Sequence record: MG748548
Source of the DNA: Escherichia phage EP335
Length of the DNA stretch: 64,000 nucleotides
Reading direction: 5' to 3' (one strand)
Part shown: piece by piece, positions 53,756 through 57,398 of the stretch
How the letters are laid out: every line of letters starts with the position of its first letter
Numbering within the stretch: the stretch's first letter is position 1
Program-made: the position numbers and the translations under genes
The notes under the pieces: generated by a model
Databases searched by the model: none
Told to the model about the DNA's origin: nothing
What the model saw: only the letters and a program-made list of their open reading frames with translations

Positions 53756-53989
53756 TTAGATACCTTTAAGTTTAAGAATTTCGTTGCGAGTACGTTGGAT
53801 ACGTTCTTCAAGAGTATGATAATCAAAGATGCACATCTCTTCTGCTTCATCAGAAGGTGCATCCATTAAACCCATAGCAATCGGATACACCTTTCGCTGT
53901 TCCGTTGTCATGTCCTGTAGCCGGAGTCGTTGATACTCCAGCAGGGTAATTTTCGGCTTGTTAGTTTCCTTGCTTGACATGAGGCTCAA
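53756..53989 (-). CDS. hypothetical protein
   Basis: ORF track 77 aa. Confidence 0.35.
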   Translation of the reverse strand: MSLMSSKETNKPKITLLEYQRLRLQDMTTEQRKVYPIAMGLMDAPSDEAEEMCIFDYHTLEERIQRTRNEILKLKGI

Positions 53990-54194
53990 CCTTGATACCT
54001 TTCAGTTTCACATAGTCAGCCAGCACGTTGTTAATAACTGTTGGGAAAGGAATCTCAACAGGTGCATTAACTAACCCACCAATACCCTCTTGCATCCACT
54101 TCTGGATTGCACGAAGGTTATCACATCCTGTGCTTGTCATTGGAATACGGCGAGTGGTTACAACGTTATCCAACATCATCTTACGAATTTCCAT
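53961..54194 (-). CDS. hypothetical protein
   Basis: ORF track 77 aa. Confidence 0.35.
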   Translation of the reverse strand: MEIRKMMLDNVVTTRRIPMTSTGCDNLRAIQKWMQEGIGGLVNAPVEIPFPTVINNVLADYVKLKGIKVEPHVKQGN

Positions 54195-54204
54195 AATACA
54201 CCTC

Positions 54205-56223
54205 TTAATTATGACCTTTACAGTGCACTGAATCGCACACCACTTGATTGGTATTGTTTAGTGTGCAGAGTTCTGCATCACGCCACGGAATCTTTTTAAA
54301 ACAGACTGCACAAAACCCAAGAGTAGACCAGAGGGCTTTTGTGAAGGTTGCTGATCGGTTTCCATCGAAGGACGCAACTGTTCTGGTAATTGAGACTTTT
54401 GACTCACGAAAGGTTTCCGCTGCTGGAGCGGGTTCCTCCTTTGGGGTAGTCACTGCAATAGCATAAACACCACCCCAACGCTTCTCAATGTAAGCACCGA
54501 ACACATCTTCCAGAGTGATTTCACTCTTACGTTTGGTTGAGGATTCCATGACAATCATGTTGTCCAGAATCTTTTGATCAACACGAAGAGCTACTTCAGG
54601 ACGTCGAGCACTTGTTGTATCAACATACTTGGTCCAAACATAACCCTCTTTCAGAGTGACTTGAGTTGCTTGCTTCTTTGCTTTATTAGCACAGATTTTA
54701 CAAACATCGTCACCACGAAGTTTACTGAACTCTTCATCAAATTCAAAGTCAGACTTCACTTCGCCGCACACTGAACAAACGCCGATAGGAATCTCATCCT
54801 CTTCAACGTCTTCCACTTGCTTCTGGATAGAATCAAAACAAGCTTTATGCCAATATGCTTGGTATGCGAAGATCGCACTTGGTGCTTCTTTCCAGTCAAT
54901 GTGCTTATCACATCCACCACAATCACCGTGGGAATGGGCTTCCCAGAACTTACGAGTGATAGTCACCCCATTCTTGCTGACAAAACTATCCTCTGCATCA
55001 AAAGGGATATCATCATCGAAATCAGCTGTAGTGCTTTCCGGCTCCTTTTTCGACAAGTCAAAGAAGTGACCAGAGATCAACACCAAACGAATCATGCTAT
55101 TAACTTCAGAGATACAGCCAACCGTACCACGGTAAACCATATGCTTGTTCTTAAGAGCAGCTTCGTAATCAGTTTGCAGGATGTTATGAACATCACCCTC
55201 AATATACTCTTGAGCTTTGTCATCATAAATATAACCAACCATCTTACCGCGATCGGTATCTTTATAACAAACAAACTCGTGAGGAATAATATCAACCTGC
55301 ATATCACGACGGACATCAACACCTTTGTCAGAGGCGATCTTGTTTTGTTTCAAGATTGCTTCACGACGACGTACATCACCTGCGGTTACGCCGGGCTTTC
55401 TTTGCTCGTCGCTGTTCCCGTTTACGTAACTTTTTGTCACGCTTGAGTGATTGTTGCTGTAGCTGTTCGAGTAATAACTTCCCCAACGCGTTGCTACCGT
55501 AAAAACCGGGAGTTCATGTACGACCTCCTCTACCAAAGTCATCTTGTTGTCAGAAACATCAAAGATGTACTCTGTACCGACTTTACACTCAAAGTGCTCA
55601 TCAATTCGGTTCTTGTGGCTCTTAGAACGCTGAAGAATCCACATTAGCATCGCTTCTTCTGAAGCACCAAACCATGAAGTTCCCAGACGGGCCAGATGGA
55701 AAGGACGTTCATCGTTACGAATGATGTGAAGACGGTTATCACTTGCATCATGCCAGATTAGAGTGAATGCACCATCCAACTTCTGAATAGTCTCTGCTGC
55801 ACCAATCTTGTTAATAGAGTGGCAGATGTTCTCACTATCAACCTCAAAAGCCTTACTGTCAGGCAGAAGGTCTTGATCAACTAAGGTTCCGTTATGAACC
55901 AGAGTAATATTTCCGTGAGAGAATGGGTGAGCGTTACGTGAGTTAATAGCGCCTTTCGTAGCATGTCGGCTGTGACCAACAATCCATGAAGGAGGCACTG
56001 TGTAATTAGTAAGGCCAGTTGTCAGCTCGGTGTACTCTTTCTGTAACATGAAAGCATAGGAAGGCAGTGCTTCTTTGTAAGAGAACACAGATCTTTCGCT
56101 TTTACGCTGACCGAAAATACCAGTTGAGTGTTGACCACGAAATACACCAGCATAAAGAAGCTGGTTGTAAATATCTAAGTCATAACTTGAGAGGCTTCCA
56201 CCTGCTAATACGATACCACAAAT
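54205..56223 (-). CDS. class-II (Ntn) glutamine amidotransferase domain protein with Cys-rich C-terminal domain; probable non-canonical ATT start
   Basis: in-frame upstream sequence K-I-CGIVLAGG...HSRHATKG...NAHPF...VHNG; Cys codon 56218-56220 preceded by ATT with aggtgga 7 nt upstream; track start is GTG 56088. Confidence 0.6.
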   Translation of the reverse strand: MCGIVLAGGSLSSYDLDIYNQLLYAGVFRGQHSTGIFGQRKSERSVFSYKEALPSYAFMLQKEYTELTTGLTNYTVPPSWIVGHSRHATKGAINSRNAHPFSHGNITLVHNGTLVDQDLLPDSKAFEVDSENICHSINKIGAAETIQKLDGAFTLIWHDASDNRLHIIRNDERPFHLARLGTSWFGASEEAMLMWILQRSKSHKNRIDEHFECKVGTEYIFDVSDNKMTLVEEVVHELPVFTVATRWGSYYSNSYSNNHSSVTKSYVNGNSDEQRKPGVTAGDVRRREAILKQNKIASDKGVDVRRDMQVDIIPHEFVCYKDTDRGKMVGYIYDDKAQEYIEGDVHNILQTDYEAALKNKHMVYRGTVGCISEVNSMIRLVLISGHFFDLSKKEPESTTADFDDDIPFDAEDSFVSKNGVTITRKFWEAHSHGDCGGCDKHIDWKEAPSAIFAYQAYWHKACFDSIQKQVEDVEEDEIPIGVCSVCGEVKSDFEFDEEFSKLRGDDVCKICANKAKKQATQVTLKEGYVWTKYVDTTSARRPEVALRVDQKILDNMIVMESSTKRKSEITLEDVFGAYIEKRWGGVYAIAVTTPKEEPAPAAETFRESKVSITRTVASFDGNRSATFTKALWSTLGFCAVCFKKIPWRDAELCTLNNTNQVVCDSVHCKGHN

Positions 56224-56297
56224 TTTCTAATCCACCTGAAGGGTAAACCCTTTCATCTAATTAACCTTTAGTTGTGCCCCTTTCGAGGCACCCATTG

Positions 56298-57398
56298 TTA
56301 CAGCAGTCGTTCTAACTGAATTTCCAAGTGATCTGGAATATATTCAGTGACGTTGTTATCGGAGACGCCAGATTCACGCATCATGTTGAGCATGCTACGA
56401 ATCTGTCCTTCTGTTGCTTCACGAGTTTCACTAATCTCTGTTTCATACAGAGCCATGATCTCGTTATGAACATCTTGAGCATTACCACGGACATATCCGA
56501 GGAAGCCATAGAAGTCAGACATATCACGAAGGGATACAACTACCGACCCACTATTATCAAGAGTTTGTAAACGAATACGCCCAACCTGACGGACAGAACG
56601 ATTACGACAGAACAGGATATCACGAGCCAGACGATAACCACTATCAAGATCTTCGTGTCTTGGGGTGTAGTCTAGAGGTAGGTGAGGGAGCATAGGGTCA
56701 AAACGAACCCTGTTAAGCATCTCAACAAACTCTTCATTGTCCATCTCTGCATTTTCAACTGCTAATTTCTTAAGAACCAAGAAGCGGTTTACCAGATTTA
56801 ACAGCTGACCTTTCTTCCACTTAGGCTCTGAGATACGGAACTCAACAGAACCGAACTGAGCCAGAGGAAGTAGGTTAAGTGATGTGTACTTATCCCAACG
56901 ATCAACAATGTGTCGGAAGAAGTTCTCACCTTCGTAGTTAAATGCTTCAGAAGCATTCATTACTTGAGCCTGCACTACCGCAAAAGCAGGACAGAAATTA
57001 CTACGGTAACGGTGATAACCAGAGCACTTAAACATCAATGCTTCATAGAAAGTCCACCCAAGGATAACTTTCTTAACGATATTGCTATCAGCATCTCGCA
57101 TATCCATATGAACGTGAGTGGAACAGCGCCAAGTCCCTTCTGCTTCGGACTCCATCACTGCCTCACTCAGATTGTTGATAGCGTCAAACAGTTCTACACC
57201 ATTGTAAGGGCGAGAACAGACCATTTCACATCCGTTGCGAAGCGAGCCATCCTCTGTACATTCCCACATATCTGCTTCGATATGATCGTCACCTTCAAGC
57301 TCCAGCTCAATACCAATACCGCATTGGAATGCGATACTCGGATGTGCTTCACTCAGACGATTACTACGGTATCCAAAAGCTTGCGCTACAGTTGTCAT
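56298..57398 (-). CDS. amidoligase-like (glutamine-synthetase-fold COOH-NH2 ligase) candidate
   Basis: N-terminal G.E.E strand motif FQCGIGIELELEG and His/Glu-rich core; assignment tentative. Confidence 0.4.
   Translation of the reverse strand: MTTVAQAFGYRSNRLSEAHPSIAFQCGIGIELELEGDDHIEADMWECTEDGSLRNGCEMVCSRPYNGVELFDAINNLSEAVMESEAEGTWRCSTHVHMDMRDADSNIVKKVILGWTFYEALMFKCSGYHRYRSNFCPAFAVVQAQVMNASEAFNYEGENFFRHIVDRWDKYTSLNLLPLAQFGSVEFRISEPKWKKGQLLNLVNRFLVLKKLAVENAEMDNEEFVEMLNRVRFDPMLPHLPLDYTPRHEDLDSGYRLARDILFCRNRSVRQVGRIRLQTLDNSGSVVVSLRDMSDFYGFLGYVRGNAQDVHNEIMALYETEISETREATEGQIRSMLNMMRESGVSDNNVTEYIPDHLEIQLERLL

Follow-up and report, generated by a model that had tools for sequence, protein, structure and literature searches.

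A probable ATT start codon in the glutamine amidotransferase gene of a phiEco32-like Escherichia phage, and the recurrence of ATT and ATC starts across the enzyme family

The whole stretch of DNA analysed in this study, referred to here as the window, comprises 64 kb (64,000 nucleotides) of Escherichia phage EP335 (sequence record MG748548). It belongs to a phiEco32-like (Gordonclarkvirinae) phage of Escherichia coli and, over a 1-kb query, shared 97.6% identity with KBNP1711 and 95.9% with Bas89. Its minus strand carries, at positions 54205–56223, a gene for a putative class-II, or N-terminal nucleophile (Ntn), glutamine amidotransferase, the translation of which almost certainly begins at an ATT codon. 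From ATT to TAA (54207–54205) the gene has 672 codons including the initiator; the frame is open for 671 codons from the catalytic cysteine, and the mature protein would consist of 671 amino acids starting with this residue (Cys1). In the reverse complement of positions 55900–56400 and its translation, the minus-strand junction reads ...cttcAGGTGGAttagaaaATTtgtggtatcgtattagcaggtgga... and can be written by its elements as ...GAAAGGGTTTACCCTTC AGGTGGA TTAGAAA ATT TGT GGT ATC GTA TTA GCA GGT GGA..., translated across the junction as *KICGIVLAGG. ATT (56221–56223) lies directly 5' of the TGT codon of the catalytic Cys (56218–56220, followed by GIVLAGG) and is preceded by AAA (56224–56226) and by an in-frame TAG (56227–56229), two codons 5' of the Cys. 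A Shine-Dalgarno (SD) sequence, AGGTGGA (56231–56237; duplex energy −5.9 kcal/mol), is separated from ATT by the 7-nucleotide (nt) spacer ttagaaa. The first in-frame ATG, GTG or TTG after the Cys is the GTG of codon 45 (56086–56088), at which the list of open reading frames (ORFs) opens this frame, exactly 44 codons past the Cys. A preliminary description of the locus had given the order of Cys, AAA, ATT and TAG, the GTG as first canonical start and the SD sequence 7 nt before ATT; re-reading of the sequence and of the ORF list agreed with it on all these positions. Absent from that description was a mini-ORF of nine codons (ATG AAA GGG TTT ACC CTT CAG GTG GAT TAG; MKGFTLQVD*) at 56227–56256, in frame with the amidotransferase, with its ATG at 56256–56254 and its end 3 nt 5' of ATT. 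The upstream Amidoligase_2 gene (56298–57398, minus strand) has its stop codon 74 nt 5' of ATT; therefore, the amidoligase and the amidotransferase are not translationally coupled.

The assignment of the enzyme derives from profile matches and from a predicted structure, both of which place an Ntn (class-II) glutaminase domain of about 240 amino acids at 55501–56220 on the minus strand. The protein matched Pfam GATase_6 with 53.3 bits (cut-off 27; E = 3.8 × 10−14) and GATase_7 with 28.6 bits (cut-off 25). Because a sequence search of the PDB with the protein gave no match, a comparison of folds took its place. The AlphaFold2 model, built from a 60-sequence alignment, had a mean predicted local distance difference test score (pLDDT) of 91.5 and a predicted template modelling score (pTM) of 0.89, and it displays the four-layer alpha-beta-beta-alpha arrangement of the Ntn fold. 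Foldseek related this model with probability 1.0 to GlmS, PurF, AsnB and EgtC, with E values down to 2 × 10−13; among the structures matched, at E of about 10−13, were GlmS 3ooj and 1xff and PurF 1ao0 and 1gph. Invariant columns of the alignment were C2-G3, R86, N111-G112 and D129, the last three of which we take to be the counterparts of Arg73, Asn98-Gly99 and Asp123 of GlmS. As judged from the alignment, the invariant Cys, Arg, Asn-Gly and Asp are the expected class-II catalytic set, and the predicted protein would share with GlmS, PurF, AsnB and EgtC the fold, the N-terminal Cys, the oxyanion Asn-Gly and the glutamine-binding Arg and Asp. In the predicted model Cys1 is the first residue of strand beta-1, and at the sequence level TGT follows directly upon the SD-preceded ATT, as in homologues that begin with Met-Cys. 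This phage protein differs from GlmS and the other enzymes in that it has no recognisable synthase domain and is encoded in an amidoligase/ATP-grasp cassette, with neighbouring genes for an Amidoligase_2 protein and a COOH-NH2 ligase. Residues beyond about 260 (the C-terminal ~430) gave no Pfam match. On the basis of the modelled fold, the glutaminase domain could instead work as a gamma-glutamyl hydrolase like EgtC.

Several observations indicate that the ATT is the start of this gene. In the clade comparison, codons 1–44 had a nonsynonymous divergence (dN) of 0.13–0.18 and a synonymous divergence (dS) from about 0.9 to saturated, indistinguishable from codons 45–100; the 44 codons before GTG are under purifying selection, i.e., they are coding. 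The GTG itself is replaced by GTC in SU7, NJ01, phiEco32 and a metagenomic relative (four of the seven clade members aligned), and no SD sequence is present before GTG 56088. ATT-TGT occurs at the same place in all Kuravirus-clade genomes examined, despite saturated synonymous divergence, and the recurrence of both junction and leader in every one of them allows a sequencing error or chance to be discounted. PHROG profiles aligned their position 2 to Cys1, and a Met-Cys N terminus was found in 92 of the 120 best (distant) homologues. Furthermore, the coding sequence (CDS) starts on the homologous ATT in the phiEco32 RefSeq record NC_010324 (phi32_83) and in the BASEL records of Bas86, Bas89 and Bas94; the ATT start of the single gene is thus already publicly annotated. 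Elsewhere the annotations are truncated, as in KBNP1711 (GTG), SU7 (an internal ATG), Pseudomonas phage O4 and Klebsiella phage KpnP_VR7901. With respect to the features expected of genes with non-canonical starts, the frame must begin without a canonical alternative at the AUU (TAG two codons upstream, GTG 44 downstream), the SD sequence stands at a functional spacing (AGGTGGA and then 7 nt), and the non-canonical codon is conserved in the Kuravirus clade and recurs in a dozen or more lineages besides. Of the two alternatives left by the preliminary description, initiation at ATT is favoured by the selection on codons 1–44, the lack of conservation of GTG, the identity of the Ntn domain, the Met-Cys homologues and the recurrence, in many lineages, of ATT or ATC behind an SD sequence of fixed register.

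For the study of the family, 168 loci were taken from IMG/VR irrespective of their start codon, and the catalytic Cys was placed by a hidden Markov model; 128 non-redundant members were left after dropping distant GlmS/AsnB-like matches and duplicates. The alignment of 60 sequences was too divergent to serve for retrieving loci. The codon before the Cys was ATG in 94 of the 128, ATT in 20, ATC in seven, TTG in six and GTG in one. No other codon was observed at this position among the 128, and all five are known initiators. The preliminary description had recommended an alignment with homologues as a check, and the outcome was ATG in about 73% and ATT or ATC in about 21%. A neighbour-joining tree of about 200 amino acids requires the start to have changed between ATG and ATT/ATC at least 17 times. 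Outside this sample, eight proteins with truncated or extended called N termini were drawn from a 5.8-billion-protein database, and their contigs showed ATT or ATC in seven cases and TTG in one. As a control, the GlmS genes of 80 different gammaproteobacterial species all had ATG before the Cys (80/80; Fisher p = 7 × 10−7). ATA was not found in the 27 non-redundant ATT/ATC loci or in the seven out-of-sample ones, although a change from ATG to ATA is a transition. GTG, which normally accounts for about 14% of bacterial starts, was found in only one of the 128. Among cultured phages, those with ATT include the E. coli Kuraviruses and Klebsiella phage KpnP_VR7901, and P. aeruginosa phage O4 has ATC. 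Tandem ATT/ATC codons (ATT ATC and similar) were considered as a signal, and their excess was not significant (5 of 27 versus 8 of 94 ATG loci, p = 0.16).

The ATT and ATC starts are accompanied by a recognisable context. In 23 of the 27 ATT/ATC loci, the interval from the preceding stop to the Cys contains no in-frame ATG, GTG or TTG, and most of these relatives have an in-frame stop 1–18 codons upstream. Their SD sequences, stronger than those of the ATG class (p = 0.004), read GGAGGA at −13 to −8, with G at −9 in 97%, and the AGGTGGA of the window lies in the same register. We defined as coupled those genes with an upstream ORF of at least 50 amino acids ending within −10 to +20 nt of the start; by this definition 16% of the ATT/ATC genes were coupled versus 68% of the ATG genes, the latter typically through overlaps of the TAATG type. 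Tight translational coupling as the cause of ATT/ATC starts was therefore rejected, the opposite being seen. A hairpin, scored as present when the 35-nt segment that ends 9 nt upstream of the start had a minimum free energy (MFE) of at most −5 kcal/mol, was observed in 70% of the ATT/ATC loci versus 19% of all ATG loci, 14% of the uncoupled ATG loci (Fisher p = 1.3 × 10−4) and none of the six TTG loci. When near-identical Kuravirus loci were collapsed, the values were 67% for the amidotransferase and 24% for neighbouring genes of the same loci (p = 8 × 10−4). In 21 of 22 hairpins the 3' end falls 9–15 nt from the start, while the hairpin sequences are wholly different between lineages that have the rest of the leader in common. 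Thus, L008, L012, L049 and L100 all have ...CTAGGAGATGAGAAAAT(T/C)TGTGG despite their differing hairpins.

In addition, leader and start codon differ together in three pairs of near-identical proteins (96.7–99.5% identity). PA11 has TTG and lacks the hairpin, whereas O4 has ATC and the hairpin; L033 (TTG) is paired with L037 (ATT), which has a 19-nt insertion in the segment of the hairpin and GGAGGA; and the third pair consists of L031 (ATG) and L032 (ATT). The 21-nt junction GGAGGATTAGAAAATTTGTGG, which comprises the in-frame TAG, 3 nt and ATT, is exactly the same in L174, L175 and L187, the called proteins of L174 and L175 being only 38–39% identical to the query; the Kuraviruses have a variant of it with GGTGGA.

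In the Kuravirus clade itself, a leader of 55 nt, from TAAAGGTTAATTAG to ATTTGTGG (56216–56270, minus strand), is invariant in the seven aligned genomes, while both flanking genes are near synonymous saturation, which argues for strong constraint at the nucleotide level. It contains a predicted hairpin, UGAA(A)GGG-UUUA-CCCUUCA (56237–56255; core AAGGG/CCCTT at 56239–56252), which abuts the SD sequence and for which RNAfold gave −6.1 kcal/mol in the 35-nt segment. The mini-ORF is likewise invariant in the clade. As a general feature of the family it was rejected, not being conserved in L174, L175 and L187 despite their identical TAG AAA ATT junction. We also observed that the ATG-type leader of Pseudomonas phage Lyrsu01 (L190), ctaaaggttaatagagggtttcaatATG, about 25–50 nt before its start, resembles the 5' half of the Kuravirus leader, ctaaaggttaattagatgaaagggttta; for this reason, an older ribosome-binding site of the ATG type may survive in the ATG of the mini-ORF and in the 5' arm of the hairpin.

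We consider it probable that the best explanation of these data is an ATT start that works with a conserved module of hairpin, SD sequence and AUU or AUC to keep the level of a glutamine-consuming enzyme low. According to this explanation, the SD sequence AGGTGGA would hold the 30S subunit and put the initiator formylmethionyl-tRNA (fMet-tRNA) on AUU, and the host deformylase and methionine aminopeptidase would strip the fMet and expose the Cys1 nucleophile. The module, of which the weak codon would be a deliberate part and not an accident, would be composed of a small hairpin, a strong SD sequence occupying −13 to −8, a 7-nt spacer rich in A and AUU or AUC, and it would recur where the gene has its own ribosome-binding site instead of upstream coupling. 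Its most likely role would be low expression of the enzyme by means of a near-cognate codon. Expression from AUU has been estimated at about 1–2% of that from AUG (Hecht et al., bioRxiv 10.1101/063800) and, in another study, at about 12–25% (PMC3592434). Moreover, initiation factor 3 (IF3) discriminates against non-AUG starts, and nutrient limitation and guanosine tetraphosphate (ppGpp) preferentially depress them (PMC5499595), so that a weak start could tie the production of the enzyme to the state of the host. Expression might also respond to IF3 or to host nutrition, in the manner of infC, pcnB and S. aureus ccpN. Any such regulation, which the preliminary description had already suggested for the ATT, is something that we infer. 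Given that the Cys must be residue 2, the output would be tunable only through the SD sequence, the RNA structure or the start codon, and one reason why the pattern is visible in the amidotransferase family is that the position of the start cannot drift. In the Kuraviruses, where the mini-ORF ends 3 nt before AUU, termination and reinitiation may add to de novo initiation.

Some points weigh against this explanation. About 73% of the family uses ATG, and weak initiation is therefore not intrinsic to the enzyme. The SD sequence of the window (−5.9 kcal/mol) is weaker than those of most other ATT/ATC loci, and the folding z-score of the whole leader in the window (−0.75) is unremarkable. Reinitiation cannot be the general mechanism, because conservation of the mini-ORF does not extend beyond the Kuravirus clade. 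For the hairpin, insulation of the SD sequence, stacking on the SD helix and blocking of ribosomes that arrive from upstream are candidate roles. The statistics on hairpins and SD sequences carry no phylogenetic correction, and they depend on an MFE threshold over 35 nt, a neighbour-joining tree of about 200 amino acids and approximate starts of the neighbouring genes. Finally, the nine peptides by which the protein of the related phage SU10 was detected as an early product in shotgun proteomics show that it exists, and not its N terminus or initiation site (PMC4281155).

Two alternatives would place the beginning of translation elsewhere. A start at GTG 56088 would agree with the KBNP1711 annotation and with the rank of this codon as the first canonical start in frame, and it would yield a protein of 627 amino acids without Cys1 and the first beta-strand, catalytically dead or repurposed. 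However, the codons upstream of it are constrained like the remaining gene, relatives have GTC at its position and no SD sequence precedes it; besides, the lost segment holds the invariant Cys-Gly and Arg-Gly as well as strand beta-1 and helix 1 of the model. The nucleophile-less protein envisaged in the preliminary description is thus strongly disfavoured, and we regard the GTG as scarcely credible as the real start. Propeptide-bearing Ntn amidotransferases exist, and in B. subtilis PurF a propeptide of 11 residues, which is another way to encode residues upstream of Cys1, precedes this Cys. A proenzyme could accordingly be conceived here if ATG 56256 were used and the TAG were read through by suppression or recoding, with autocatalytic removal of a 12-residue propeptide (MKGFTLQVD-X-KI); the mini-ORF is indeed in frame and invariant within the clade, and an AAGG of its own stands about 8 nt upstream of it. 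Nevertheless, TAG 56229–56227 separates the sole upstream ATG from the Cys, so that, in difference from B. subtilis PurF, there is no propeptide without read-through, and hosts without a suppressor normally read through UAG only rarely. The SD sequence is positioned for ATT and not for read-through, L174, L175 and L187 have the identical TAG AAA ATT without any in-frame upstream ATG, and most ATT/ATC relatives lack a canonical start and have an in-frame stop 1–18 codons upstream; nor does the window encode a tRNA. A proenzyme is, in consequence, very improbable.

The remaining alternatives accept the AUU and differ in how it is reached or why it is there. In a variant of the best explanation with the same start site, the Kuravirus AUU would be reached mainly by termination and reinitiation: translation of the mini-ORF would melt the hairpin, stop at UAG and restart 3 nt further on, and the output would be set by translation of the mini-ORF rather than by de novo binding of 30S. 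The geometry of stop, 3 nt and AUU, with an SD sequence located within the upstream ORF, matches that of thrS-infC, the predicted fold pairs the region of the mini-ORF AUG with part of the SD region, and the entire leader is invariant. This invariance, however, makes coding constraint and RNA constraint on the mini-ORF indistinguishable, other lineages with the same junction have no mini-ORF, and the ATT/ATC genes are the least coupled of the family to upstream ORFs; we judge this variant to be rather unlikely. It could also be argued that ATT is a decayed start, neutral or slightly deleterious where little enzyme is needed, and that the association with hairpin and SD sequence comes from shared ancestry of the leaders. 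The lability of the start codon (at least 17 switches, and different starts in near-identical proteins) and the lack of phylogenetic correction in the statistics speak for it. Against it, ATT is fixed in a clade with saturated synonymous sites, ATA was never seen (27 + 7 loci) and GTG is nearly absent, the position of the hairpin is fixed while its sequence varies by lineage, leader and start codon differ together in the three pairs mentioned above, and GlmS has not undergone such decay. Decay is therefore improbable. Returning to the AUU module, a bolder form of it, which we put forward only tentatively, would see in the hairpin, GGAGGA, 7-nt spacer and AUU/AUC a dedicated, ancient and exchangeable initiation module, in which hairpin and SD sequence hold the 30S subunit and the output is gated by IF3, ppGpp or nutrients, or slowed to allow complete removal of fMet. 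If this were true, it would be the first family-wide, structurally defined signal for non-canonical initiation in phages, and it would suggest that ATT/ATC starts are systematically missed wherever catalysis does not pin the N terminus.

Conserved non-canonical starts with strong SD sequences are already known as a kind (infC, pcnB, cvfC1, ccpN and ebpA). In E. coli, infC and pcnB are the only confirmed AUU starts (bioRxiv 10.1101/063800). Both have AUU behind a functional SD sequence and a weak codon that limits expression, by which infC becomes sensitive to IF3, and the thrS stop, 3 nt and AUU of infC (UAA GGU AUU) resemble the UAG AAA AUU found here; in reporter constructs of the thrS-infC junction, reinitiation and de novo initiation were about equal (PMC3592434). 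The amidotransferase differs from both in having a nine-codon mini-ORF and not a real gene as the upstream cistron, in being a phage gene with an N terminus pinned by catalysis, in the use of AUC as well, and in the hairpin that abuts the SD sequence. S. aureus cvfC1 (AUU), ccpN (AUA) and infC (AUA) also share a conserved non-canonical start and a strong SD sequence at correct spacing; their output is about 10% of that of AUG, and that of ccpN depends on the medium (PMC13009471). They are cellular Gram-positive genes in single orthologous groups with no upstream hairpin described, whereas the amidotransferase trait has been gained and lost repeatedly in many lineages of one phage family. In E. 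faecalis ebpA, a rare ATT start attenuates expression and the annotated ATG lies downstream; it is a Gram-positive pilus gene without a constraint on an enzyme N terminus and without family-wide recurrence (PMC4447247). The closest cases are gene 83 of phiEco32 (YP_001671828) and its counterparts in Bas86, Bas89 and Bas94, which are the same gene with the CDS on the homologous ATT.

Our searches of the accessible literature returned nothing relevant on an ATT start in phage amidotransferases. Nor did they yield a description of ATT/ATC recurring throughout a phage enzyme family, of an exclusive link between ATT/ATC and uncoupled SD sites of fixed register, or of an adjacent hairpin gained and lost together with a weak start. 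The use of AUU/AUC in this family is frequent (about 21% of lineages), has been repeatedly gained and lost, and has a recognisable context of fixed-register SD sequence and hairpin. Since catalysis pins the N terminus, the family is a natural reporter of non-canonical initiation in phages. Because gene callers disallow ATT and ATC, the enzyme is truncated and its catalytic Cys lost in many public phage records and in about one fifth of metagenomic predictions; an annotation rule anchored on the catalytic Cys would mend these calls. The pattern also yields testable rules on where weak starts occur, for which PA11 and O4, or phiEco32 and Bas89, offer natural pairs, and it is a hint that how much of the amidoligase/amidotransferase cassette is made, or when, matters to the phage.

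With regard to the other elements near the start, a second hairpin, GUGCCUC-GAAA-GGGGCAC (56274–56291, minus strand), lies just after the amidoligase stop. It shows compensatory changes between Kuravirus genomes (GGGTGCC...GGGGCAC versus GGGCGC...GGGCGC) and may be an RNA-processing or stability element of the early operon. A role as an intrinsic terminator between amidoligase and amidotransferase is not supported, as it has no U-tract and was not called by a terminator scan. The leader was rejected as a repeated phage promoter, since its 17-mer TAAAGGTTAATTAGATG is not credibly repeated anywhere else in the 64 kb of the window; nor does it contain TAATGTATA, which the SU10 supplement lists as a middle/late promoter motif of the phiEco32 type, and a sigma-70 scan of the coding strand found nothing. 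Comparison with Rfam did not place the leader in a known family (best scores 16 and 14 bits versus gathering thresholds of 44 and 45), and a phage tRNA decoding AUU as initiator was discarded because the window contains no tRNA gene.

The C-terminal two-thirds of the amidotransferase (residues ~260–671; 54205–55450, minus strand) contain several CxxC motifs resembling zinc ribbons (CGGCDKH..., CSVCGEV...CKICA and CAVCFKK...). Most family members have only about 380–450 amino acids with a single conserved GCxxC...CxxC motif at the C terminus; hence the Kuravirus protein carries a C-terminal extension. The cassette was first noted in phiEco32, with the Amidoligase_2 and COOH-NH2 ligase genes upstream and an ATP-grasp/RimK-like gene (according to the annotation of relatives) downstream. 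According to a proposal related in a secondary source (PMC10580990), the cassette would serve to modify the cell wall or to synthesise metabolites. Immediately downstream of the amidotransferase, a small ORF (53961–54194, minus strand) matches DUF7195 (E = 1 × 10−17); it is a conserved member of the cassette, with the amidotransferase on one side and the ATP-grasp gene on the other. The window appears to lack the HNH endonuclease gene that occurs within or beside the COOH-NH2 ligase gene of relatives (Bas89, L002, 371–1682 and 406–876; SU7, L003, 375–845); in L180 and L181 HNH genes are found on the flanks of the amidotransferase. For Bas89 the annotation gives the ligase CDS as two pieces joined across the HNH gene, which suggests an intron-like or homing insertion.

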